From the sequence record PQ423993.1: a stretch of DNA of 45,658 nt; one strand, given 5' to 3'. This document shows positions 3,822 through 18,855 of this stretch, in pieces. The translations under genes and the position numbers were made by a program. How positions within the stretch are numbered: position 1 is the stretch's first letter; each line of letters starts with the position of its first letter. The DNA comes from Escherichia phage vB_VIPECOMC04. The notes beneath the pieces were generated by a model, which was not told the origin of the DNA, made no database searches, and saw only the letters and a program-made list of their open reading frames with translations.

Positions 3822-4262
3822 TTATCCTAATAGTTGTTTGGTAATAATCTTGCCGCCGGTGTTGGTGTCGAACTTCGATGCAACGGCTACGCCACCATGC
3901 GCCGAATACCCACATTCCATAGCCGCCAGTGCATAAGGAGAGCCGGACCCAACGGCGGCAAAGCCGTCTGCAATTGGAATAACCGAACTAAGGGCACAAT
4001 CCCATGATTTGTAGAACTCCACCTTACACAACGTTTCTATGTCTTTAACCCACACCAGGGCAGAGAAATCAAAATCATAATGCTTAGGCACTAAAATACC
4101 GTCGTCCTTCACTAAAAGGATTCCAACCCCGGCATCACCAACCACCCCGATAACAACAAATTCGTTCTCATATATCTTTGTGTCTGTGTTGTAATAGTTA
4201 CTTCCACTCACAACACGCGTGTCACAAGCCATTGTCTTTCCGTCGAATGCGATAGTAGTCAT
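3822..4262 (-). CDS. HslV-like / proteasome-beta-like Ntn-hydrolase peptidase
   Basis: N-terminal MTTIA (Thr directly after Met) and GSGSPYALAA match the E. coli HslV MTTIV and GSGGPYAQAA signatures as recalled; about 30 aa shorter than HslV. Confidence 0.6.
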   Translation of the reverse strand: MTTIAFDGKTMACDTRVVSGSNYYNTDTKIYENEFVVIGVVGDAGVGILLVKDDGILVPKHYDFDFSALVWVKDIETLCKVEFYKSWDCALSSVIPIADGFAAVGSGSPYALAAMECGYSAHGGVAVASKFDTNTGGKIITKQLLG

Positions 4263-7579: not shown

Positions 7580-7608
7580 TTGATTTCCCATTATTCGCAA
7601 TGTATACT
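7580..7608 (+). promoter_or_regulatory. candidate early promoter
   Basis: TTGATT-17-TATACT about 30 nt upstream of the first plus-strand gene (ATG 7641). Confidence 0.35.
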
Positions 7609-7640
7609 TGATTTCGTTAACTGATAATGAGGGTTTGAGA

Positions 7641-7811
7641 ATGACACAGAATGAGGTAGCTGAGCGTATCGGGGTTACTCGTCGCACACTGAATAACTGG
7701 TTAAAGAGCGGGAAGTTCCCGGATTGTTGTATTCGCATTATGGGTCGCCGTCAGCCTGGTACGTTTGACCCGGAGAAAGTGGAAGCGTGGATTAAGGAGA
7801 ACGTGAAATGA
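7641..7811 (+). CDS. small HTH DNA-binding protein (AlpA/Xis-like)
   Basis: ATG 7641 with GAGGG upstream; VAERIGVTRRTLNNWLKSGKFP is an HTH signature. Confidence 0.5.
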   Translation: MTQNEVAERIGVTRRTLNNWLKSGKFPDCCIRIMGRRQPGTFDPEKVEAWIKENVK

Positions 7812-8041
7812 CCGAGTTCCAGTCACGCGTATTTACGGCAGTCGTTTCGTTAACACGCAAAAAAGGTTCGTGCAGCGTTATCGACTTGCGCCGTAGCTAT
7901 TTTAAGTACTATAGTTCCGCCATTATTGAAGGGTCGTTGAAGGTGCTGGTTAAATCTGGTGTCGTGAAAAATGTTGGCGGGAGATATAGTGCCGTTGCAG
8001 AAGTTCGCGGAATGACCGCTACTTTAGAAGACCTGGAATAA
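7808..8041 (+). CDS. hypothetical protein with C-terminal EDLE tail
   Basis: ORF track; ends ...TATLEDLE, the same tail as the primase/helicase and exonuclease. Confidence 0.45.
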   Translation: MTEFQSRVFTAVVSLTRKKGSCSVIDLRRSYFKYYSSAIIEGSLKVLVKSGVVKNVGGRYSAVAEVRGMTATLEDLE

Positions 8042-8099
8042 AAGAAAGCCCCGACGCGGTGAACGCCGAGGCAAAATTACTTGCTGAAGGAAATACAAC

Positions 8100-10340
8100 A
8101 TGACCGATGTAATTTTATCCTACTCGTGGTCTCGTCGCAACGCGCGGGCAGAGAAAAAGGATATAAACGTCAGAACCACACACACGGCAACACTGGACGA
8201 CCTGAAAGAGTTAATACAGCCGCTTGATGCCGTTCGTGGCGGAATTAACCCTAAGACCGCACCAGGCTACATCACCGCCGCGTGTGACTCAACGCACAGC
8301 ACCGTAAAAGACCCGGAAACAGGTGACTTTAAGCAAGCGCGCAAAGGTTTCTTTTATCGCTGTGACGCGTCTGTAATCAAATCGTCACTTGCGTATCTGG
8401 ACTTCGACAGTGCAACGCCGGAAGAGTATCGGGAAGCGGTGCGCCTGGTTAAGCGCAGCCGCCCAGCGATGTGCCTCTACACTACGGCATCACATACCGA
8501 TGAGTCGCCGCGCTTTCGCGTCGTCATGCCGCTGGCCCACCCGGTTGAAGGGGGTGACATCATCCGTGTTCGGCATGGATTGCTGGAGCACTTCTTCAAA
8601 GGCATGGGTGCGGACCGTAGCGGGTTCACTCTGTCTCAGCCGATGTACCTGCCGCCGGTTGGCTCTACTGTTATCTGGTCGCGCCGTAACGACCTGATTG
8701 ACCCCGACGAGTTACTGGAAGGTATCCCCGCCGTTGATGTTAGCAGCGCATCGGATTACCAGATACCAGAAGAACTGCGCACCGCGTTTACAGCTGCGTT
8801 CGAAGCCCTGGCGTTCGAATACGGCGGCATCATGACCCCACGCGGCCTTAAGATGCCAGCTACACCAGAACACGCAGAGAACTACAGCGACCCGACGCCG
8901 CGCCCAGACGACTTCCTGTTGTGCTTCCCGCGCGCCGGGTACGAAGCACCGAACGTAACCATGATTCACGACACCGACATTACTGCAACAGAAGGCATGT
9001 CACCGAAAGAGGTGTGGAAGTATGCGTGTGACGCTACCGGGCTGCCGTTCAGTGAAGTGGCTGAGGCCATCGGATGGGGTGCGCGGGAGTCCGTTTCATG
9101 CAGCCTGGACGACCTGGAAGATGACGAGGACTCAGAGGGTGACGAGTTACCAGAACCGGTAAAGGCTGATTTCGTCGTAGAAGGGTACATGCCGTCGGAT
9201 TGCATATGGGATATTGTTGGGGAATCCGGTACGTATAAATCATTCTATACGCTTGGGATGATGTACCTGAGCGCCGCCGGATACCGGTTTGCGGGAGCCG
9301 ATACCCAGCGTTGCCACCATTTCTATATTGACGGTGAGGGTGGCGCGACCACACGCACACGTATCGATGCGCTCGCGGCTAAATATGGTGAGGAAGGTAA
9401 AGATTATGTACATGTCATCGACATGGGTGAAGTAGGCAAACTGAAAAGCCTGATCAAGCTAATGCGCGAAACTGCTGGTGACGAGCCAATTGGCATGGTT
9501 GCGTTCGACACACTCAACCAGACACTGGCACTGACGATTGATAAGTTCGACGAGAACAGTTCATCAACGGCAATCGGCATGGGTAAAGTTATCGCCATCC
9601 TGAAAGAAGTGCGTGACGCTACTAAAGCCGCGGTAGGCGTTGTTCACCACACACCGAAGGGTGGAAAGAAAGCCCGTGGTAGCGGGGCGCTGTATGCCGG
9701 TGTTGATGTGGAGCTTACAATTGAGCGCGCAACCGACCGTCAGATAAACGTATACCACTCGAAATTTAAGCACGGGCCCCAACAGAAAACGGTTGGCATG
9801 GTGCTGGAGTCTGTACAGTTCCGTGAAGCCCCGCCGCCGAAAGAGTACCGTGCAGTTGAGTTCCTGGGTAACACAGAGGAATACGGCGCAATCGTAAACC
9901 TGGACTTGCCGGAACCACACAAAGCGCTTGTGCTGATGCCGTGGGGCTTCGAGCCGTTCAAAACTGACGAGGAGAAAGAGCGGGAAGAAGGGCTGACAAA
10001 GGAAGGTAAAGAAAACGTAAAGAATGCTGTAAAACGTGGGAAGGATGAAGGGCGTAAGGAATCAATACTCGCCGCGCTGGAAGACCTGCAACAGTCCGAC
10101 GACACAGGCCGCGGTTTTACCCAACGGCAGATAGTGGCGAACTCAGGCGACCACGCTATCACAAACCACCATCTTGAGAAGATGCTGAAAGAAGGTGAGT
10201 TGATGCTTGGGTGTGATGCCAACGGTGAAGTTATACCGGGCACATACCGGATACCTGAAAAGATGGGTGACAGATTAAGACCGAAGACAATATACGAACC
10301 GAATGGAATGCTGGTGGTGACAGAAGAGGATTTGGAATAG
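8100..10340 (+). CDS. primase-polymerase (AEP-like) fused to a RepA/DnaB-like AAA ATPase
   Basis: N-terminal AEP-like motifs (LDFD, ASHTDES); central Walker A GESGTYKS and Walker-B-like MVAFD; ends ...VVTEEDLE. Confidence 0.7.
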   Translation: MTDVILSYSWSRRNARAEKKDINVRTTHTATLDDLKELIQPLDAVRGGINPKTAPGYITAACDSTHSTVKDPETGDFKQARKGFFYRCDASVIKSSLAYLDFDSATPEEYREAVRLVKRSRPAMCLYTTASHTDESPRFRVVMPLAHPVEGGDIIRVRHGLLEHFFKGMGADRSGFTLSQPMYLPPVGSTVIWSRRNDLIDPDELLEGIPAVDVSSASDYQIPEELRTAFTAAFEALAFEYGGIMTPRGLKMPATPEHAENYSDPTPRPDDFLLCFPRAGYEAPNVTMIHDTDITATEGMSPKEVWKYACDATGLPFSEVAEAIGWGARESVSCSLDDLEDDEDSEGDELPEPVKADFVVEGYMPSDCIWDIVGESGTYKSFYTLGMMYLSAAGYRFAGADTQRCHHFYIDGEGGATTRTRIDALAAKYGEEGKDYVHVIDMGEVGKLKSLIKLMRETAGDEPIGMVAFDTLNQTLALTIDKFDENSSSTAIGMGKVIAILKEVRDATKAAVGVVHHTPKGGKKARGSGALYAGVDVELTIERATDRQINVYHSKFKHGPQQKTVGMVLESVQFREAPPPKEYRAVEFLGNTEEYGAIVNLDLPEPHKALVLMPWGFEPFKTDEEKEREEGLTKEGKENVKNAVKRGKDEGRKESILAALEDLQQSDDTGRGFTQRQIVANSGDHAITNHHLEKMLKEGELMLGCDANGEVIPGTYRIPEKMGDRLRPKTIYEPNGMLVVTEEDLE

Positions 10341-10357
10341 GTAAAAAGAAAGGGGCG

Positions 10358-10573
10358 TTAAGCCCCTTCACCGAACGCCAGCCACTTGGCGTCTACTTCC
10401 AGTACTTCCGCCAGTTTAAACAGCGTTGCCGGGCGGACGTCCTGAGTTACCCCAAGTGCCAGCTGGTTAATTGCGCCCTGGGACACCCCAGTCAGGACAG
10501 CCAGACGGCGCTGGGAGATGCCAAGTTCTTTACGGCGTTGTTCTACACGAATGCCTAGTTCAGATGGTTGCAT
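10358..10573 (-). CDS. XRE/Cro-CI family HTH transcriptional regulator
   Basis: 71 aa; ISQRRLAVLTGVSQGAINQLALG is a classic XRE helix-turn-helix; AAGGAG RBS; divergent from the class A promoters. Confidence 0.75.
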   Translation of the reverse strand: MQPSELGIRVEQRRKELGISQRRLAVLTGVSQGAINQLALGVTQDVRPATLFKLAEVLEVDAKWLAFGEGA

Positions 10574-10593
10574 TTCAATTACTCCTTAGTTAG

Positions 10594-10622
10594 TTGACAT
10601 GTGAATAGTACCATATTAATTA
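10594..10622 (+). promoter_or_regulatory. promoter-like element, class A (degenerate -10) with operator
   Basis: TTGACA-17-TAATTA; contains GAATAGT-ac-CATATTA; sits 44 bp upstream of a better copy. Confidence 0.35.
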
Positions 10623-10637
10623 TTTTAGAAAAGCCCA

Positions 10638-10666
10638 TTGACATGTGAATAGTTCGCTATTATAGT
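10638..10666 (+). promoter_or_regulatory. sigma70-like promoter, class A, with operator
   Basis: TTGACA-17-TATAGT; spacer holds the palindrome GAATAGT-tc-GCTATTA (10647-10662); 32 nt upstream of ATG 10698. Confidence 0.6.
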
Positions 10667-10697
10667 TAACCCATACCAAACGAGAGGAGAGAAACAA

Positions 10698-11198
10698 ATG
10701 TTAGAGAAATTCTTAGTATTACTGGAACGTTTCGTAGTTGCGCATGAACTGATTGCTGCGAATAGTGCGAAACAGTTCGCGCCAACTACTGCCAAAGAGG
10801 CTGCCGCAGTAGCCGCTCATAAAATTGAGCAGTTCTCTGAAAGTATTAAAGAAGAAACAAAAGAAATCTCGGTCGAAGGTGAAGACGTCGTTGACACTAA
10901 ACCAGCAGAAGAAGAGAAGCCTAAACGCAAGCCGCGTAAAGCTAAAGTAGAGGAACCAACGCCAGAACCGGAAGAAGAGAAAGAAGAAGTCGATTACCAG
11001 TCTCTGCGTGACCAGATTCAGGCTATCGACGATGCGATTAACGAAGGTCCGAGCGACGCCGCGTGTGATGATTCCGATGAACTGCTTGAAGAGTTCACCG
11101 GTAAGAAGATGAAGATTGCCGCGATTAAAGACGAAGACCTGGCTGAATACCTGGAACGACTGACAGCAATCAAGAACAAGTATTTCGAAGAAGAATAA
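10698..11198 (+). CDS. acidic low-complexity protein
   Basis: ORF track; E/K/P-rich, ends ...KYFEEE; GAGGAGAGA RBS. Confidence 0.45.
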   Translation: MLEKFLVLLERFVVAHELIAANSAKQFAPTTAKEAAAVAAHKIEQFSESIKEETKEISVEGEDVVDTKPAEEEKPKRKPRKAKVEEPTPEPEEEKEEVDYQSLRDQIQAIDDAINEGPSDAACDDSDELLEEFTGKKMKIAAIKDEDLAEYLERLTAIKNKYFEEE

Positions 11199-11241
11199 CT
11201 ATCCTGCGGCCCTCGGGCCGCTTTAACTGAGGGTCGGAATT

Positions 11242-11514
11242 ATGATTTACCAACTCTACCGTGCCGTTGACAGGCGGGATAACACAGAGGCGCTATGGTT
11301 ATTGCGTGCGCCGTCCGGTGCTCACCAGATGGAAGAGATGGCGTACTTAGGCAAAGTACCGCGGGCTAAAGATATAAGCCGTCATGTGTCGCAGATTAAG
11401 CGCACGACTTTTGCCAAGCCTGACTTTTATGTCTTCGAGTCGATGTATGGATGGGCCATGCATTGCCAGCACCCGACCAGACATTTAATTGACCAGTGGG
11501 AGAGCAGGGTATGA
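11242..11514 (+). CDS. hypothetical protein
   Basis: ORF track. Confidence 0.4.
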   Translation: MIYQLYRAVDRRDNTEALWLLRAPSGAHQMEEMAYLGKVPRAKDISRHVSQIKRTTFAKPDFYVFESMYGWAMHCQHPTRHLIDQWESRV

Positions 11515-11858
11515 CGGATAAATGGTGGCTTAATTTGCGCAGCGGTGACAAGGTTTACACCGTCGGTGACCGCAGAAAGAACAGCGGCGTAGCTACTGTG
11601 TTACAAAACGGCAAAAAGTACATCCACATTGCGCATGAAGCCCGGGCGCTCCGCGTGAATAAATCTTCTGGTAGGCTTGAGGATTACCCGAAAACATTAA
11701 TATACAAAAGTGAAAAGCATCACATGGCCGCTGTTGACGCAAGACGTCAGTTCGCAGGAATGTTGCGACAGTTAAGCGACTTACATCGCGATGATTCTTT
11801 CACACCCTCAGAAGAACAGCTACAGGCATTAAACTTGTATTTGGAGAGTTTACGATGA
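11511..11858 (+). CDS. hypothetical protein
   Basis: ATG 11511 overlaps the upstream stop (ATGA); ORF track frame. Confidence 0.4.
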   Translation: MTDKWWLNLRSGDKVYTVGDRRKNSGVATVLQNGKKYIHIAHEARALRVNKSSGRLEDYPKTLIYKSEKHHMAAVDARRQFAGMLRQLSDLHRDDSFTPSEEQLQALNLYLESLR

Positions 11859-13096
11859 TTCTAAAAGAACGCGGCGGCAATAACGATGTTCACGCCTTAC
11901 TTTCGCCGTCAGGTGCTAAAAAATGGCTGTCATGCGCTGCATCACTGGCCTGTGAAAAAGATATTCCTAACACGTCGGGTAAATCCGCCGTTACGGGGAC
12001 AGCGTGCCACACCATAGCTGAAGTCCATCTCAACGCCTATATCCGCGGCACTGCGTTGCCGTTAGAGCGTGAAGTTGGCGCTTACGTGCTGGATGAGGGT
12101 AAAGGCCAGATTAAGGCGCTAATCAGCCCGATGAAAGGCGCGGTACTGATTACGGCGGACATGATTGAGCAGGTGCGCAAGTACACCGACTACTGCAAAG
12201 CGATTATCGACGTTGCAACTTACGCAAAGCTGGAGATGCGGGTAAATCTTACTGAGGTGCTGCATCCTGGTTACGAAGGCGTTGAGACATTCGGAACTGC
12301 TGACCTTGTTGCCGTTCAGGAACTGGCGAACACAGACGAGCACATGCTCATTATCGGAGACCTTAAAACAGGACGGCATCGTGTTGAAGCGAAAGAAAAC
12401 AAGCAGCTTATGCTCTACGCTCTCGGTGTTTATCGCCGACTCAAGAGACGTTATAACATCACCGCGGTTCGTCTGGCCATCTTTCAGCCATACGCTGGCG
12501 GCGCGTCGGAGTGGGACATCTCGGTTGAAGGTCTGGAACTGTTCGCTAAGTTTGCGCAGAAACGGGCGCTGTTAGCTCTTGATGCGTATTTCCGTGGTAA
12601 AAAGAACCTGAAAGCGTCGGACTTCAGGCCGTCTGTCGACGGTTGCCAATGGTGCCGTTTCTCAGAGCAGTGCGCCGCGCGTACAAAAACCGTCAACGCG
12701 GTGCTGGCGGAAGAACTGGAGGACGACTTTGCGCTGGAACTGACGCCGGAGCAACTCGTCGCTGAGTATGAGAAGCTGCCGCTGTTGCGCCAGCACATCG
12801 ATAAGGTTGAGAAAGCTATGGCTGCTGCGTTGCATTCCGGTAAGAAAGTTCCTGGGTACAAGCTGGTTGAAGGTAAGATGGGCAATCGTGCGTGGAAAGA
12901 CGCGGAGAAAGTAACAGAACTCTACGGCGACAAGCTGACTAAAGAAGTGCTCATGACGCCAACCGAAGCTGTTAAAGTGATACCGGAAGAAGAACTGAAA
13001 GACTTCATCACACGTAAGCCAGGTGCCCCATGCATCACAACGGCAGACGACAAACGGCCTGAGTGGAATCAGGTTAGTGAAGAAGATTTGGAATAA
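11855..13096 (+). CDS. PD-(D/E)XK exonuclease, Cas4/RecB-like with Fe-S cysteines
   Basis: Motifs IIGDLKTG and QLMLYALG plus Cys pattern C...CQWCRFSEQC; ends ...VSEEDLE. Confidence 0.7.
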   Translation: MILKERGGNNDVHALLSPSGAKKWLSCAASLACEKDIPNTSGKSAVTGTACHTIAEVHLNAYIRGTALPLEREVGAYVLDEGKGQIKALISPMKGAVLITADMIEQVRKYTDYCKAIIDVATYAKLEMRVNLTEVLHPGYEGVETFGTADLVAVQELANTDEHMLIIGDLKTGRHRVEAKENKQLMLYALGVYRRLKRRYNITAVRLAIFQPYAGGASEWDISVEGLELFAKFAQKRALLALDAYFRGKKNLKASDFRPSVDGCQWCRFSEQCAARTKTVNAVLAEELEDDFALELTPEQLVAEYEKLPLLRQHIDKVEKAMAAALHSGKKVPGYKLVEGKMGNRAWKDAEKVTELYGDKLTKEVLMTPTEAVKVIPEEELKDFITRKPGAPCITTADDKRPEWNQVSEEDLE

Positions 13097-13101
13097 AGTG
13101 T

Positions 13102-13130
13102 TGACACCTGAATAGTTAGCTATTATAGTT
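13102..13130 (+). promoter_or_regulatory. sigma70-like promoter, class A, with operator
   Basis: TTGACA-17-TATAGT; palindrome GAATAGT-ta-GCTATTA at 13111-13126; upstream of the SSB gene. Confidence 0.6.
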
Positions 13131-13184
13131 CTAATCACTGGCCGGGCAGCTCCCGGAGTAAACTGAAAACTGAGGAATCGAGAA

Positions 13185-13811
13185 ATGGGGCTGAAATTAA
13201 ATCTGCGTAAAGTAAACACTGCCTGGGTTAACGTATTCGAACGCGAAAAAGACCGTGAAAATGATGATGGTTCAATCACTAAAGGTCAGTACAGCGCGAC
13301 TATTATCCTGCCGTCCGACCACGCGCAAATCGACGCGCTCTACGACACCGTTTACGCTGTAGTTGAAGAAGCGTTAGGTGCAGCCGCCGCTGAGAAGTGG
13401 ATGAAGTCTAACTACGGCGAAGGTAAGCACATGGATAAATGTGCGATTAAAGACATTGCTGAGCGTGACAATCCGTTTGAAGACTTCCCGGAGGGCTTCT
13501 ACTTCAAAGCGAAGGCACAGAAACAGCCGCTGATTGTTACCTCTAAAAAAGGTGAGACTCAGGTAGAGCAGGACTTCAATGTAGACGGCGAACAGATTGA
13601 AGGTGAACAAGTTTACAGCGGCTGCGTCGCTAACGTAAGCGTCGAAATCTGGTTCAGCCAGAAATACAAAGTCCTCGGCGTTAACCTGCTGGCTATTAAA
13701 TACGTAGGCGAAGGTAAAGCGTTCGGCGGTTCTAAAGTCGCCGCAAGCGTCAATGACCTGGAAGATGACGAAGAAGAAGAAGCACCGCGCCGCGAACGTC
13801 GCCGCCGCTAA
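13185..13811 (+). CDS. ssDNA-binding protein, T7 gp2.5-like
   Basis: Beta-rich core resembling gp2.5-type SSBs; tail DLEDDEEEEAPRRERRRR (acidic then basic). Confidence 0.55.
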   Translation: MGLKLNLRKVNTAWVNVFEREKDRENDDGSITKGQYSATIILPSDHAQIDALYDTVYAVVEEALGAAAAEKWMKSNYGEGKHMDKCAIKDIAERDNPFEDFPEGFYFKAKAQKQPLIVTSKKGETQVEQDFNVDGEQIEGEQVYSGCVANVSVEIWFSQKYKVLGVNLLAIKYVGEGKAFGGSKVAASVNDLEDDEEEEAPRRERRRR

Positions 13812-13830
13812 TATCTGAATGAATTTAACT

Positions 13831-13856
13831 AAGGCCCTTCATTGGGCCTTTTTACC
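13831..13856 (+). terminator. intrinsic terminator
   Basis: AAGGCCC-ttcatt-GGGCCTT followed by TTTACC. Confidence 0.5.
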
Positions 13857-13865
13857 GGAGTCAGA

Positions 13866-14339
13866 ATGGAACATATAAAAGATTTTCTTAGCTATAACCG
13901 AGAAACCGGAATATTCATATGGATACAACCTACATACAGACGAGGGAAACCTGGAGACATCGCAGGATGCATCAATAGTAGTGGATACTGGCGAATACCT
14001 TATATGGGTAGATATTACATGGCCCACAGGCTCGCTTGGTTTTTCGAGTACGGTGAATGGCCCGAGGGTCCTCTTGACCACATAAACCGTGACAGGTTAG
14101 ACAATAGGATTTCTAACCTAAGGAAAGCAACCACCGCAGATAATGTGCGAAACGCTAAAAATAAGGGGGCTAGAACGGGAGTTAAGGGAGTAGTTAAAAC
14201 CGACAACCGATTTTATGGGCGGGTACATTTTAACTACAAAAGTTATAATGCGGGTAGCTACGGAACTCTTGAAGAAGCAGAAAGCGCTGTAAAGAAATTA
14301 AGAGAAAAATTGCATAAGGAATTTTATTGCCATGACTAG
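13866..14339 (+). CDS. HNH homing endonuclease with AP2 domain
   Basis: HRLAWFFEYGEWPEGPLDHINRDRLDNRISNLR (HNH) followed by an AP2-like segment; abuts the DNA polymerase start. Confidence 0.8.
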   Translation: MEHIKDFLSYNRETGIFIWIQPTYRRGKPGDIAGCINSSGYWRIPYMGRYYMAHRLAWFFEYGEWPEGPLDHINRDRLDNRISNLRKATTADNVRNAKNKGARTGVKGVVKTDNRFYGRVHFNYKSYNAGSYGTLEEAESAVKKLREKLHKEFYCHD

Positions 14340-16530
14340 TTTATTATACCTGGATACCGAGACATTCTCCGAAGCAGACTTAAAGAAAGTCGGGTCGTAT
14401 GCGTATGCGGAGCACCCAACGACAGAGGTTATAATTTGTACATATGCCGTTGATGATGGCCCTGTAGAAATATGGGATTGCACTTCCGAACCTGTAATGC
14501 CGATAAGCCTCTGTGTGGCTCTCCGTAATGTTATGCGTGGGCGTATGAAAATCGTGGGCCATAACTTTTTAATGTTCGACAGGCTCGTCATGAAACACTG
14601 CTGGGACTTTGATATTCCTGTAGGCAACACCATTGATACGATGATTTGGGCGTTTCGTCACGCGCTGCCGGGTTCCCTCGATGCGTTGTGCGAAGTGCTG
14701 GGCGTGTCAGCAGACAACGCGAAAGACAAACGAGGCAAGGCGCTGATTCAGCGTTTCTCTAAACCGACGCCGAAGAACTACAAAATCCGTCGCTACACCG
14801 CTGAAACACACCCGGACGAGTGGGCACTGTTCATCAAATACGCCGTGAGTGACATCACCGCAATGCGTGAAGTCTTCCATAAGCTGCCGCGGTGGGGTAA
14901 CTCCGAGTTAGAAGACCGTGTACTGGAACTGGACCAGTTAATCAACGACCGCGGGTTTAAGGTTGACGTTGCTCTGGCAGAAGCCGCGATTGAAGCTGTG
15001 GAGAAGCACAAGGCACAGTTACAGGAAGAAGCCCAACGCAAATACGGCGGCTCGCTTACCGGAAAGGACTTCCTTCCTATTCTGCGTGAACTTGCCCCAG
15101 CGCACCGCATACACAACGCACAGAAGTCGACGCTTAACGACCTGTTGGCGGACGATGATTTACCGGACGATGCTCGCACGATTATCGAAATGCGCCTCGG
15201 GGCCGCATCCACCGCGTCAACGAAATATAACCCATTGCTGTTGGGCCGCTCATCGGACGACCGCCGCCGGGGTTGTTTACAGTACGGTGGGGCAAAACGC
15301 ACTTTGCGGTGGGCGGGTAAAGGCTTCCAACCACAGAACCTGGCGCGCGGGTACTATCACGATGATGAACTGGATAAAGGCATTTCAGCGTTACTTAAAG
15401 GCCGGGCACACCGCCGTTTTGATGTAGCCAAGCTAACGGCATCGACGGTACGTAGCTGCATCATACCGGAAGTGGGGCATAAGTTTGTTGTTGCCGATTA
15501 CTCTAACGTTGAGGGTCGTGGGCTTGTGTGGTTGGCAGGCGAAGAAACCGCGCTTGATACTTTCCGCGCCGGGTTGGATATTTATTGCGTAACTGCAGGT
15601 AAGATGTTTGGCATGGACCCCGACGATATTAAGAAAAACTTTAAGGAAATCAGACAGATAGGCAAGGCTTGCGAACTGGGCCTCGGTTACGAGGGAGGCG
15701 TCGGAGCATTCGTTACGTTCGCCAAAAACTTAGGCCTCGACCTTATTGAGATGGCTAAAACAATGGACGGTACGTTCCCCGACCACATCTGGGCCGCTAC
15801 CGCACGCGGGTATGAGTGGGCGCGCATCCAGGAAGCCAAGCGCCCCCCGCATCCAGGTGAGAAGGATGACCGACCATCGTATATTCTGGACAAGAAAGTG
15901 TGGCGCACCTGCGACGCAATCAAGCGTATGTGGCGCGAGTCACACCCGGAAACAGTAGCGTTCTGGCGCGACCTCAAAGACGGTATTTTAGCCGCTGTAA
16001 GAAATCCGGGTCGTGAATTTTGGGCGGGGGCGCATCTGCGCAAGAATGGCGAGCGCGCTATCCGAATCTGGAGAACAGTAGAAACCGATTCATCCGGTAG
16101 GAAGGTTCCCGGTTGGTGGTTGTGTATGGAGTTGCCGTCGGGCCGTATCCTCTCGTATCCAGGAATCGGCGTTAGCGTGACAAAAGAAACAGACGAAGAC
16201 GGACGGGTAAACACGAATGTGCGAATCAAGTACCAAGGTGAAAACCAGTTAACCCGCCAATGGACTACCCTGTACACCCACGGCGGCAAAGCCTGCGAAA
16301 ACATTGTTCAGGCGCTGTGCCGTGATTTACTCGCATATGCGATGGTTAATGTTGAGGGTGGCGGGTATCCAATCGTGCTTTCGGTACACGATGAACTGGT
16401 ATGTGAAACTCCAGATACGCCGGATTACACGGTGCCTGAGCTGGAAAAATTAATGTGCACGTTGCCTGAGTGGGCAGAAGGCTTCCCTCTTGTCGCGGAA
16501 GGTAGCGAAATGTACAGATATGCTAAATGA
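14332..16530 (+). CDS. family A DNA polymerase with 3'-5' exonuclease
   Basis: Exo I YLDTETFS; motif A DYSNVEGR; motif B RQIGKACELGLGYEGG; motif C VHDELVCE. Confidence 0.9.
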   Translation: MTSLLYLDTETFSEADLKKVGSYAYAEHPTTEVIICTYAVDDGPVEIWDCTSEPVMPISLCVALRNVMRGRMKIVGHNFLMFDRLVMKHCWDFDIPVGNTIDTMIWAFRHALPGSLDALCEVLGVSADNAKDKRGKALIQRFSKPTPKNYKIRRYTAETHPDEWALFIKYAVSDITAMREVFHKLPRWGNSELEDRVLELDQLINDRGFKVDVALAEAAIEAVEKHKAQLQEEAQRKYGGSLTGKDFLPILRELAPAHRIHNAQKSTLNDLLADDDLPDDARTIIEMRLGAASTASTKYNPLLLGRSSDDRRRGCLQYGGAKRTLRWAGKGFQPQNLARGYYHDDELDKGISALLKGRAHRRFDVAKLTASTVRSCIIPEVGHKFVVADYSNVEGRGLVWLAGEETALDTFRAGLDIYCVTAGKMFGMDPDDIKKNFKEIRQIGKACELGLGYEGGVGAFVTFAKNLGLDLIEMAKTMDGTFPDHIWAATARGYEWARIQEAKRPPHPGEKDDRPSYILDKKVWRTCDAIKRMWRESHPETVAFWRDLKDGILAAVRNPGREFWAGAHLRKNGERAIRIWRTVETDSSGRKVPGWWLCMELPSGRILSYPGIGVSVTKETDEDGRVNTNVRIKYQGENQLTRQWTTLYTHGGKACENIVQALCRDLLAYAMVNVEGGGYPIVLSVHDELVCETPDTPDYTVPELEKLMCTLPEWAEGFPLVAEGSEMYRYAK

Positions 16531-17042
16531 TGATGGGGTGGTTTATGAGAGATTTAATTAATTGGCATGACCATTTCTACTACGAACCTGACACGGGGAA
16601 GATACGATGGAAGTATTCCCCGAGACACAGTATAAACGCCGGAGACGAAGCCGGTAGTCCAAGTAAGAGAGGATACATCTGTATCGTCGTCAGAGGGGTT
16701 AGTTACAGGGCTAATCGTATCGCATGGGGGATGTATAACAATGACCGTTTAGGGCCTGATGATGAAGTAGACCATATAAATCATATCCTGGATGATAATC
16801 GTGCATGCAACCTTCGGAAAGTATCCCGTACTGATAATAACCGAAACGCATCTCGCAGAAAAGATAACAAGTCAGGTATCACTGGTGTGCACTGGAACGC
16901 ACGGGCGGCTAAATGGAAAGCAGGTATATTCGTTGACGGTAAACTTATATTCCCGGGCCACCATGACAATATATTTGACGCGGCTTGTGTACGGAAATCC
17001 GCGATTGTTCGCTACGGCTTTCATGAGAATCACGGAGGTTAG
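16527..17042 (+). CDS. HNH homing endonuclease with AP2 domain
   Basis: HNH core EVDHINHILDDNRACNLR plus AP2-like C-terminus; overlaps the DNA polymerase stop. Confidence 0.8.
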   Translation: MMMGWFMRDLINWHDHFYYEPDTGKIRWKYSPRHSINAGDEAGSPSKRGYICIVVRGVSYRANRIAWGMYNNDRLGPDDEVDHINHILDDNRACNLRKVSRTDNNRNASRRKDNKSGITGVHWNARAAKWKAGIFVDGKLIFPGHHDNIFDAACVRKSAIVRYGFHENHGG

Positions 17043-17739: not shown

Positions 17740-17914
17740 CCGCAAGCCCGCACGTGACATCGTACCGGGCGACATGATTTTCAACGTTAAGACACGTCGT
17801 CCTGTTGCCGTTGATACGGTGTTCGTCGAGTCGAATGGTAAACTGGTTATCGAAGATGCGACCGGTAACGTTACGGCGTTCGGGCGTAAAGAGCTGGTGC
17901 TGGTGGTGAAATGA
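17723..17914 (+). CDS. hypothetical protein
   Basis: ORF track. Confidence 0.4.
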   Translation: MKYEYDRKPARDIVPGDMIFNVKTRRPVAVDTVFVESNGKLVIEDATGNVTAFGRKELVLVVK

Positions 17915-18855
17915 ACTATTACAATGAGTGGGATAAAGGCGCAGCCGCGTGGCTGCGTGAATTAATAAAACAGGGTCACATACCTTTTGGAGTTGTAGAT
18001 GAAAGAAGCATTACAGAAGTTAAGCCAGAAGACCTCGACGGGTTCACCCAGTGTCATTTTTTCGCTGGTATCGGCGGCTGGCCTCTCGCGCTCAGACTTG
18101 CGGGAGTTTCGGAAAATACGCCTCTCTGGACGGGAAGCCCGCCTTGCCAACCGTTTAGCGCGGCAGGAAAGCAACTCGGACATTTCGACCCGAGACACCT
18201 CGCGCCGGTATTCCTTGACCTCATCAGCGAGTGCCGCCCTCCAGTCCTCTTTGGGGAACAGGTTGCGCCAGCAATTGCAAAATCGTGGATGTGCGATTTA
18301 CAAACTCATCTGGAAGGAGAAGACTACTCCGTCGGGTTTGCCGTACTCCCAGCTTGTAGCGTCGGTGCCCCGCACAAACGCGACAGACTGTTCTTCGGCG
18401 CGTACAACCTGGCTGAGTCCTTGTGCGCAGAACGGGACCGTGAACGGCTACACGGATTGGGAAAAAGTAATCAAACGCAAGGAAGCAGGACGGCAGCAGA
18501 ACCTACGGGACGTGGTTATTCTGGCGGCTTGGTCTACCCCGACAGCGAACGACTTCAAAGGGAGCGGAGAGACAGTGATTCGCAAGGACGGAAAGGACAG
18601 AACATTCGACAGGCTGGACTACTCAACGGAACAGGGACTGAAAATAACACAACCAATTCGGATAACAGTTTCTGGTCCGACGCTGACTGGCTCGGATGCA
18701 GGGACGGAAAGTTCAGGCCAGTTGAATCCGGCACATTCCCGCTGGCTAATGGGATACCCGCCAGAGTGGGACGATTGCGCGGTTACGGCAATGCCATCGT
18801 CCCGCAAGTAGCCGCTGAGTTTATAAAGGCATTTATGGGGGGTATTCATGTCTAA
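17911..18855 (+). CDS. DNA C5-cytosine methyltransferase (frame integrity questionable)
   Basis: FAGIGG (motif I), SPPCQPFSAAGK (IV), GEQV (VI), GAPHKRDRLFF (VIII) and C-terminal GYGNAIVPQVAAEF (X); the motif IX-like segment is in the overlapping +1 frame (see findings). Confidence 0.7.
   Translation: MNYYNEWDKGAAAWLRELIKQGHIPFGVVDERSITEVKPEDLDGFTQCHFFAGIGGWPLALRLAGVSENTPLWTGSPPCQPFSAAGKQLGHFDPRHLAPVFLDLISECRPPVLFGEQVAPAIAKSWMCDLQTHLEGEDYSVGFAVLPACSVGAPHKRDRLFFGAYNLAESLCAERDRERLHGLGKSNQTQGSRTAAEPTGRGYSGGLVYPDSERLQRERRDSDSQGRKGQNIRQAGLLNGTGTENNTTNSDNSFWSDADWLGCRDGKFRPVESGTFPLANGIPARVGRLRGYGNAIVPQVAAEFIKAFMGGIHV

Follow-up and report, generated by a model that had tools for sequence, protein, structure and literature searches.

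The replication operon of Escherichia phage vB_VIPECOMC04 (sequence record PQ423993.1), analysed as one stretch of 45,658 nucleotides that is referred to throughout as the window, raises the question of why proteins of unrelated fold should terminate in the same few residues. Three of its gene products, a 77 aa winged-helix protein, a replicative primase-helicase and a DUF2800 exonuclease of the PD-(D/E)XK (Cas4/RecB-like) type, end in TATLEDLE, VVTEEDLE and VSEEDLE respectively, and the acidic tail of the T7 gp2.5-type single-stranded DNA-binding protein (SSB), encoded next to the exonuclease, contains the related stretch DLEDDEEEE. These features had been noted in an earlier examination of the DNA made without database searches (the sequence-only reading), which proposed, by analogy with T7, that they form a common docking motif for one partner, perhaps the polymerase or the SSB. 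Translation of the open reading frames (ORFs) bore out all four, with the SSB ending SVNDLEDDEEEEAPRRERRRR.

A shared tail in the replication operon

The sharing of the tail is real and non-random. 'DLE' directly followed by a stop codon occurs exactly three times in the six frames of the 45.7 kb window, always at these three gene ends, and no further gene among the approximately 70 in the window ends in DLE. The chance of finding EDLE at one given C-terminus is around 1.2e-5, and simulations using the amino acid composition of the window put the probability of any four-residue tail being common to at least three of 70 proteins at about 3e-5. The tail-bearing genes all lie inside the rightward replication operon.

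A further, internal copy of the motif that was overlooked in the sequence-only reading, SLDDLEDDEDSE, is found in the primase-helicase linker at aa 335-346, just N-terminal of the match to the AAA_25 core (aa 352-522). The motif is best written as [ST]-x-[DE]-[DE]-hydrophobic-[DE], a form broader than 'EEDLE'. At the nucleotide level, the 3' ends of the primase-helicase and exonuclease genes, previously said to share 17 of 18 nucleotides, in fact share 16 of 18, or 16 of 17 without the last base of the stop codon (GAAGAGGATTTGGAATAG and GAAGAAGATTTGGAATAA); the third copy, in the gene for the 77 aa protein, is encoded by GAAGACCTGGAATAA, with CTG and GAC codons.

Conservation and specificity among related phages

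Eighty-eight related loci were gathered from annotated phages and IMG/VR, in part with a 19-sequence exonuclease alignment sharing NxQLMLYA, and their ORFs were sorted through iterated hidden Markov model searches seeded with the window proteins; distant exonuclease homologues were drawn from a library clustered at 50%. The check on homologues that the sequence-only reading had suggested gave a stronger result than expected, with the tail being kept on the same proteins in Kagunavirus, Jerseyvirus, Cornellvirus, Dhillonvirus and a clade of ~40 kb genomes (L052-L059), the exonucleases of the divergent clades being 46-57% identical to that of the window. In Kagunavirus, the small protein, primase-helicase and exonuclease end in TLEDLE, VTEEDLE and V[ST]EEDLE, and in Jerseyvirus the corresponding tails are TPEDLE, TTEGDLE and VTE[ED]DL(E)(A). 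The primase-helicase and exonuclease tails are VASDEDLNS and [AV]SDEDLS in the L052-L059 clade (exonuclease identity 50-57%), SATDDDLKD and ATDEDLS[ND]E in Dhillonvirus (46%), and TSEEDDLEN and ATDSDLDD in Cornellvirus SP-031.

Among the enteric siphophage loci, a C-terminus of the form [DE]DL.{0,3} is found on all 25 small proteins, 55 of the 67 primase-helicases and 66 of the 71 exonucleases, with Jersey-type primase-helicases escaping this expression because their tails read EGDLE or ERDLE. By comparison, the pattern is present on one of the 1,845 other ORFs in the same loci, and it is absent from all 66 polymerases, all 60 SNF2 helicases, the termini of all 63 SSBs and every p166 protein. 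The sole other ORF with the pattern (L018, 11209-11421), 70 aa in length, overlaps the end of the exonuclease gene and terminates KKEDLE. Similarly, 118 of 120 clusters of close exonuclease homologues have an [ST]EEDLE-like tail, and every exonuclease representative at 43-60% identity has a DL tail ([ST][DE][DE]DL). Between zero and three residues may follow the motif in relatives, as in EEDL, EDDLEA and EDDLEALTS.

The tail is encoded by 16 different codon variants in the primase-helicase genes of the related loci and by nine in the exonuclease genes, spanning GAA/GAG, GAT/GAC, TTG/TTA/CTG/CTT and all three stop codons, with D-L-E remaining constant. The combination of freely varying codons and a fixed peptide implies selection on the peptide rather than on the DNA, and the near-identical 3' gene ends, to which the sequence-only reading had drawn attention, are a by-product of coding one peptide, the likeness in DNA not being conserved in relatives. 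When the C-termini of primase-helicases from five clades are aligned, D and L are the only invariant residues of the tail, and the linker that precedes it varies in length by 8-24 residues, an organisation characteristic of short linear motifs. Other hallmarks of such motifs are also present: the tails are predicted to be disordered, with predicted local distance difference test (pLDDT) scores of 64-73 for the small protein and 43-51 (block means) for the SSB, and the carriers have unrelated folds, comprising a winged helix, a primase-helicase, a PD-(D/E)XK nuclease and an oligonucleotide/oligosaccharide-binding (OB) fold SSB.

The p166 protein (10698-11198, phrog_3127) is acidic and Lys-rich, and different clades keep a separate, aromatic-acidic sequence at its C-terminus. 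This reads NKYFEEE in 45 loci and TYFELED in 15, with EEFYDAE and KYYEVEE also found, and may represent a second type of docking tail.

Proteins carrying the motif

The 77 aa protein was modelled with high confidence by AlphaFold2 (AF2; mean pLDDT 88.6, predicted template modelling score 0.79). Residues ~1-66 are predicted to form a helix-helix-helix-strand-strand winged helix, after which a lower-confidence tail (blocks of 73 and 64) ends in the motif. A Foldseek search with this model found no match at E <= 0.001, returning just generic winged-helix domains such as the N-terminal domains of LexA and MotA, and RPA32C. The protein is restricted to Kaguna/Jersey-like phages, in which LEDLE or PEDLE is found at the C-terminus in 25 of the 25 loci carrying it, and 20 homologues have E74, D75 and L76 without exception. 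It may reasonably be supposed to act as a DNA-bound adaptor carrying the common receptor to a particular site. The possibility that it is a free-standing paralogue of the C-terminal domain of the helicase was rejected: the BLASTP alignment (E = 0.17) covers the tail only, and the hhalign probability is 1%.

The primase-helicase consists of an N-terminal primase region, the AAA_25 RecA-type helicase core, a C-terminal domain, the variable linker and the tail. Equivalents of its internal motif copy are found as CDEEDLDDEE in Jerseyvirus, CTDEDLDDD in the L052 clade and VDEFEDL in the distant, Phe-type L082 clade. In the exonuclease, which has invariant cysteines at positions 27, 264, 267 and 273, the Pfam DUF2800 model stops at residue 402, short of the tail.

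The Dhillonvirus homologue of the exonuclease encoded by Escherichia phage GeorgBuechner (gp45; L005, 8977-10410) has the tail ATDEDLSDE. We take GeorgBuechner to be the phage named Bas14 in the BASEL collection, in which case gp45 appears to be the protein reported as the trigger of retron Sen3. The DUF2800 nuclease family has been reported to be the trigger of retron type IX immunity, and the mutants escaping the type IX retron (Sen3) included truncations of the trigger nuclease (bioRxiv 10.64898/2026.07.14.737667), which suggests that the nuclease is dispensable in that phage.

The motif in SSBs and DUF2800 nucleases at large

The SSB of the window is predicted to combine a gp2.5 fold with a C-terminal segment that is acidic and disordered, the OB core being confidently modelled and pLDDT falling below ~50 over residues 181-208. 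In an alignment of SSBs from 12 clades, SVNDLEDDE occupies position-homologous columns just past the OB fold, with the Asp (D191) nearly invariant; the residue that follows is Leu in the five sequences from enteric clades and Phe or Trp in the other seven (mostly Phe, with Trp in the Chi-like phage). Profile searches showed that most DUF2815 SSBs have both a proximal element of this sort (for example DVTDDFDDL, DTSDAWDDD or ISEDDIDDTFD) and an acidic tip, DDDD[LIV], in the place of which SSBs of the window's clade have an Arg-rich end, a possible DNA-binding element or partner for the acidic tails. In the SSBs of Dhillonvirus and the L052 clade, acidic blocks alternate with basic ones in two or three repeats. 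Distant clades have small proteins, encoded directly upstream of the exonuclease, with C-terminal sequences of the SSB-tip type (SEEDDV, TDDDI, GEDDTL, EDDDAL).

Likewise, 150 DUF2800 representatives, clustered at 50%, reveal a family-wide acidic-hydrophobic tail beyond the conserved DKRPA box, in forms such as DDFEDL, DEFEDL and DDFDDV, frequently terminating in another element, ..DL[ILV]. The strict expression [DE][DE][FLWY][DE] catches 18% of these tails, and looser measures were adopted since the motif is more degenerate in this family: an acid-aromatic or DDL element occurs in the last 22 aa of 69% of 145 representatives, compared to 21% of internal windows, and the mean charge is -3.1 for the tails and -0.4 internally.

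Matching of tails within genomes

The hydrophobic residue of the motif is seen to shift jointly in the exonuclease, SSB and primase-helicase. Enteric siphophages use Leu at this position and Chi/Enc34-like phages use Trp or Tyr, with Phe found in most of the remaining phages. In Kagunavirus, the primase-helicase and exonuclease both end in [ST]EEDLE, and in Cornellvirus the exonuclease tail ATDSDLDD is identical to an internal peptide of the SSB. Beyond the enteric siphophages, the exonuclease and SSB of Staphylococcus phage Rih21 have SAEDDFDKL and SAAEDDFDEL respectively, with a VirE primase ending in ESLEDLI. The same pairing of exonuclease and SSB gives NDFDDIS..DIFA and DDFDDIS..DIFS at locus L075, NDFDDVS..ADLI and NDFDDLS..EALI at L077, DDFEDLGAEDLV and DDFDDLSVEDEGDLV at L088, EEEFDAI and DDFDEI at L094, ADEEFQDL and AEEEFDEV at L095, and EGAWDD and DDAWDD at L090. 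In the Klebsiella Chi-like phage KPN N98, the series extends to four proteins: the primase (FDDEDDDEV), a 130 aa protein (SEEDDV), the exonuclease (AYDDEDDDDEV) and the SSB (DAWDDD..DEDDDV).

In permutation tests, tail similarity was greater for cognate than for non-cognate pairs of exonuclease and SSB (p ~1e-5 with 18 clade representatives; 1.6e-4 with 13). The shared peptides are encoded by differing codons, with 19 of 24 nucleotides identical for ATDSDLDD (Ser being TCA in one gene and AGC in the other), 15 of 18 for AEDDFD and 14 of 18 for DFDDIS, indicating that they have been kept alike at the protein level rather than recently copied.

Gene context and other features of the window

When positions 7600-14400 were used in a megablast search, 447 phage genome records were matched. 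Escherichia phage vB_VIPECOTPH05A ranked first, with 95% identity, and numerous Kagunavirus and Jerseyvirus genomes came next, on the basis of which the window is assigned to a Kagunavirus-like siphophage of the Guernseyvirinae. The genes and motif copies are listed in Table 1. The DUF2800 nuclease, DUF2815 SSB and PolA genes stand side by side, as in the module termed duf2800-gp2.5-polA, with an HNH gene sitting between the SSB and polymerase genes.

Table 1. Genes of the replication operon and copies of the acidic-hydrophobic motif in the window
Feature	Position	Strand	Description
HTH_17 (helix-turn-helix) regulator	7608-7811	+	First gene noted in the replication operon
77 aa winged-helix protein	7808..8041	+	ORF; PHROG match phrog_5169, no assigned function
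Motif copy 1, L-E-D-L-E	8024..8038	+	C-terminus of winged-helix protein; stop 8039-8041
Replicative primase-helicase, 746 aa	8100..10340	+	Pfam AAA_25; phrog_3228 'replicative helicase-primase'
Motif copy 2, internal, S-L-D-D-L-E-D-D-E-D-S-E	9102..9137	+	Primase-helicase aa 335-346
C-terminal tail of primase-helicase	10320..10337	+	Tail invariant at D and L alone in five clades
XRE-type HTH gene	10358-10573	leftward	Between the primase-helicase gene and three small genes
Three small genes	between the XRE-type HTH gene and the exonuclease gene		
DUF2800 PD-(D/E)XK (Cas4/RecB-like) exonuclease, 413 aa	11855..13096	+	Pfam DUF2800 9e-68, PDDEXK_1
Motif copy 4, S-E-E-D-L-E	13076..13093	+	Exonuclease C-terminus; stop 13094-13096
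T7 gp2.5-type SSB/annealing protein (DUF2815, Enc34_ssDNA-bd)	13185..13811	+	Pfam 8e-16; PDB 4JG2 match
Motif copy 5, prototype, S-V-N-D-L-E-D-D-E-E-E-E	13746..13781	+	SSB aa 188-199, shortly past the end of the OB fold (AFGG)
Arg-rich SSB end, APRRERRRR	13782..13808	+	Stands where most DUF2815 SSBs have an acidic DDDD[LIV] tip
A-family DNA polymerase	14332..16530	+	Pfam DNA_pol_A and DNA_pol_A_exo1 (3'-5' exonuclease)
VRR-NUC, C5-methyltransferase and SNF2 helicase genes	downstream of polymerase		

Two HNH/homing endonuclease-like genes border the polymerase gene, at 13842-14339 and 16527-17042. There is no HNH gene separating SSB from polymerase in Bas73, the polymerase of Jerseyvirus AG11 has 1,032 aa, and Cornellvirus carries a Mom-like gene in this neighbourhood; judging by such differences among relatives, the surroundings of the polymerase are a hotspot for mobile insertions. 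Further downstream, the C5-cytosine methyltransferase gene (17911-18855, 314 aa) encloses a 270 aa ORF in another frame of the same strand (17999-18811). Pfam DNA_methylase covers just residues 74-165 of the annotated frame, and the stretch WLMGYPPEW in the alternative frame resembles methyltransferase motif IX; the gene could be frameshifted or dual-coded.

Two near-identical 30 bp sigma-70-like promoters are present at 10638-10667 and 13101-13130, with a further site at 10594-10623 (TTGACAyrTGAATAGTTnGCTATTATAGTT), matching 11 of 12 consensus positions with a 17 bp spacer, where none would be expected by chance. The first of these precedes the gene at 10698-11198, and the second begins 5 nt past the exonuclease stop, ahead of the SSB gene. 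Conservation of the spacer suggests a common operator or a phage-specific class of promoter. Two more of the early genes are of note: one at 3822-4262 (-) is annotated in relatives as encoding an HslV-family peptidase, although the Proteasome Pfam match in this phage is weak, and the product of the other, at 11496-11858 (+), has a Phage_ProQ_C_like domain (Pfam 3e-6).

Docking interpretation and its alternatives

On balance, we consider it probable that the tails are a docking motif on a disordered linker, mimicking the tail of the SSB and recognised by one common receptor that may be the OB groove of the SSB, the A-family polymerase, or both. The interpretation of the tails as docking motifs is well supported at the level of sequence: as would be predicted for a common docking peptide, they are conserved and change in parallel among the proteins of one genome. 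One part of the sequence-only reading that did not stand is the unit it described, EEDLE at the C-terminus, the functional unit being a looser acidic-hydrophobic motif that also has internal copies and runs through the DUF2800 and DUF2815 families. Its analogy with T7 is apt, given that the SSB is gp2.5-like and the polymerase belongs to the A family.

Under this interpretation, the prototype of the motif would reside in the gp2.5-type SSB, with the exonuclease, the primase-helicase (in two copies) and the winged-helix protein carrying imitations, such that all four would be able to fill one receptor site in the replication and recombination machinery. Were the receptor the SSB groove, the nuclease and helicase could carry SSB and pass it to the single-stranded DNA (ssDNA) that they make, provided that ssDNA displaces the acidic tail, as it is reported to do in T7 gp2.5. 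Were it the polymerase, the tails would tether the enzymes, as do those of T7 gp4 and gp2.5 on gp5. The polymerase never bears the tail, which would be expected of a hub, and the same is true of the OB core of the SSB. The groove has the precedent of crystal contacts and the polymerase that of the T7 analogy only; mosaic genomes do not separate the two, as polymerase alleles vary and the tails are constant.

A more specific proposal, which we put forward tentatively and regard as possible rather than likely, is that the duf2800-gp2.5-polA module works by 'SSB-tail mimicry'. The OB groove of the SSB would be the hub. Nuclease and primase-helicase, along with small DNA-binding adaptors, would copy the SSB tail, and ssDNA would compete for the same site, so that enzymes generating ssDNA would come already loaded with SSB and hand it to the exposed strand. 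The Arg-rich block of enteric siphophage SSBs could, in that scheme, pair with the acidic tails.

Several points weigh against the docking interpretation. The tip of the SSB in the window is basic, unlike that of T7 gp2.5, the crystal contacts of Enc34 could be packing artefacts, and the AF2 model of the full-length SSB, built from 119 aligned sequences, has a disordered tail, which says nothing on docking. The permutation p-values overstate independence because the clades are related, and the switch between Leu and Phe may represent only two or three independent events. Acidic tails also score alike through composition: the cognate SSB is not the top-ranked in several clades, and that of the window itself ranks 9 of 18. 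Finally, the exonuclease tail of Sano-like phages, LSLLDD, mismatches their own SSB, and their primase is without the tail.

The closest alternative follows T7 strictly, with the tails, including the SSB motif, docking solely on basic patches of the A-family polymerase, thereby tethering helicase, SSB and nuclease without involvement of the SSB groove. The module does encode a gp2.5-type SSB, a primase-helicase and an A-family polymerase, the last being present in 81 of 89 loci (those without it are truncated) and never tail-bearing, and both the gp4 tails (PMC12593628) and the gp2.5 tail (PMC5686142) provide precedents for docking on gp5. However, variant polymerase alleles, such as those of the ...EEVYRYAK type, occur with unchanged tails, T7 tails require a C-terminal Phe where these have Leu at position -2 as well as internal copies, and crystals of the Enc34 family show a site on the SSB for the homologous segment. 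We regard this strict version as possible but doubtful.

It is less likely still that each tail acts independently in cis, folding onto the DNA-binding surface of its own protein as a DNA mimic or autoinhibitor, or aiding solubility, such that the proteins would share electrostatics and no common partner. All four carriers are DNA-binding proteins and the tails are strongly acidic family-wide; the affinity of T7 gp2.5 and T4 gp32 for DNA rises once the acidic tail is removed, and the tail of Enc34 ORF6 confers discrimination between ssDNA and double-stranded DNA (PMC5686142). Mere acidity, though, would not hold D-L invariant, nor would it yield identical exonuclease and SSB peptides of 6-8 residues from different codons in one genome, or shift Leu, Phe and Trp/Tyr in parallel across unrelated folds.

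An address for a host factor or protease, whether a C-terminal degron or adaptor site (for ClpXP, Lon or the phage HslV-like peptidase) or a dock for a host replication protein, we consider very unlikely. The phage encodes the putative HslV-family peptidase mentioned above, and degrons typically lie at C-termini. These tails end in Glu, unlike ssrA and other known degrons, whose final residues are non-polar, and the motif is also internal, in the SSB and in the linker of the primase-helicase. No HslV-like gene is annotated in the examined region of Dhillonvirus Bas14, which nevertheless retains the tail, and phages that share hosts (E. coli, Salmonella and Klebsiella) use different tail variants that are matched within each phage, which points to a phage-encoded receptor. 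That the 3' gene ends are boundaries of recombination or gene conversion, or else have a regulatory role, with the peptide incidental, is scarcely credible: the two gene ends have 16 of 18 nucleotides identical and a promoter lies 5 nt past the exonuclease stop, but relatives conserve the peptide and not the DNA, the third copy and the exonuclease-SSB shared peptides use other codons, and the contexts 3' of the three gene ends differ (hairpin, hairpin, promoter).

Implications

The wiring of a replisome through acidic tails is a textbook feature of T7, where, to our knowledge, such tails are known for only two proteins. The tails described here would extend the T7-type principle to a recombination nuclease and a small winged-helix protein, and the device seems to be common to duf2800-gp2.5-polA as a whole, a module of far wider distribution that is found in thousands of phages of Proteobacteria, Firmicutes and Bacteroidetes. 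The lineage-specific matching of tails offers ready natural 'swap' experiments on the assembly of this little-studied module, and could help to match gp2.5-like annealases with cognate nucleases for recombineering. Given the report on the trigger of type IX retrons, the binding partner of the disordered DUF2800 C-terminus may also matter for defence sensing.

Comparison with known systems

A 5'-3' nuclease gene adjoining that of a single-strand annealing protein is also the arrangement of lambda Exo-Red beta and RecE-RecT, in which specific physical coupling of the nuclease to the annealase is thought to load the annealase on resected DNA (PMC6393309), and duf2800-gp2.5-polA has been described as a module of this nuclease-annealase type (PMC8093625). 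By contrast with the short acidic tail considered here, which is also present on the replicative helicase, a folded C-terminal domain of Red beta makes the contact with the Exo trimer in lambda.

The phage shares with T7 a gp2.5-fold SSB, a primase-helicase and an A-family polymerase, as well as similar acidic tails with a hydrophobic anchor on the SSB and helicase; the resemblance between the primase-helicase and SSB tails (VVTEEDLE and SVNDLEDDE) is conserved across clades. In T7, the gp4 tails bind two basic patches on gp5 as an electrostatic tether (PMC12593628), and the tail of gp2.5, a ligand of both gp5 and the helicase, is required for stimulation of the gp6 exonuclease (PMC4124056). 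The systems differ in that the nuclease itself is tailed here, being an unrelated PD-(D/E)XK DUF2800 protein rather than a FEN, as is the small winged-helix protein. Furthermore, the primase-helicase of the window is of the AAA_25 type and not gp4, extra internal copies of the motif are present, and the extreme C-terminal Phe of T7 is replaced by Leu at position -2 and a terminal Glu, with the SSB ending RRERRRR and Phe or Trp anchors being found in other clades.

The SSB belongs to the same Pfam family as Enc34 ORF6 and other DUF2815 proteins of known structure (5ODJ, 5ODK/5ODL, 4JG2, 4KLK), and its SVNDLEDDE aligns by position with TSDAYDEDE of Enc34, albeit with Leu in place of Tyr/Trp and a basic tip. 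The acidic tail of these SSBs has already been described: in the 1.5 A structure of Enc34 ORF6, the last 11 residues are disordered and the traceable end of the tail enters the concave seven-stranded sheet of a neighbouring SSB, burying 842 A2, with similar contacts mediated by the C-terminus reported for 4JG2, 4KLK and T7 gp2.5 (PMC5686142). The ordered segment appears, by position in the 5ODJ chain sequence, to be GRVDTSDAYD. As cited in the same paper, the gp2.5 tail and ssDNA compete for one surface; the authors treated the Enc34 contact as possible SSB-SSB cooperativity and made no mention of the same peptide on an exonuclease or primase (PMC5686142). A full-text literature search on DUF2800, DUF2815 and gp2.5-like tails, the coverage of which was incomplete, found no account of a tail shared by nuclease, primase-helicase and SSB, nor of its co-variation.

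A functional analogy, and no more than that as the proteins are unrelated and from another domain of life, is provided by the motifs of ATRIP, RAD9, MRE11 and p53 that bind RPA70N, which are acidic peptides with a Phe or Leu anchor that occupy the basic cleft of an SSB OB domain as mimics of ssDNA, thereby recruiting several enzymes. In bacteria, the tip of the SSB (DDDIPF) is likewise an acidic-hydrophobic peptide on a disordered linker that serves as a universal docking handle in DNA metabolism (cited in PMC5686142), and most DUF2815 SSBs, ending DDDD[LIV], have a comparable tip, although that of the window ends in APRRERRRR. Whereas the single bacterial tip is read by many enzymes, in these phages it is the enzymes that carry copies of the SSB peptide, an arrangement that would follow a logic of mimicry or of competition for one receptor.

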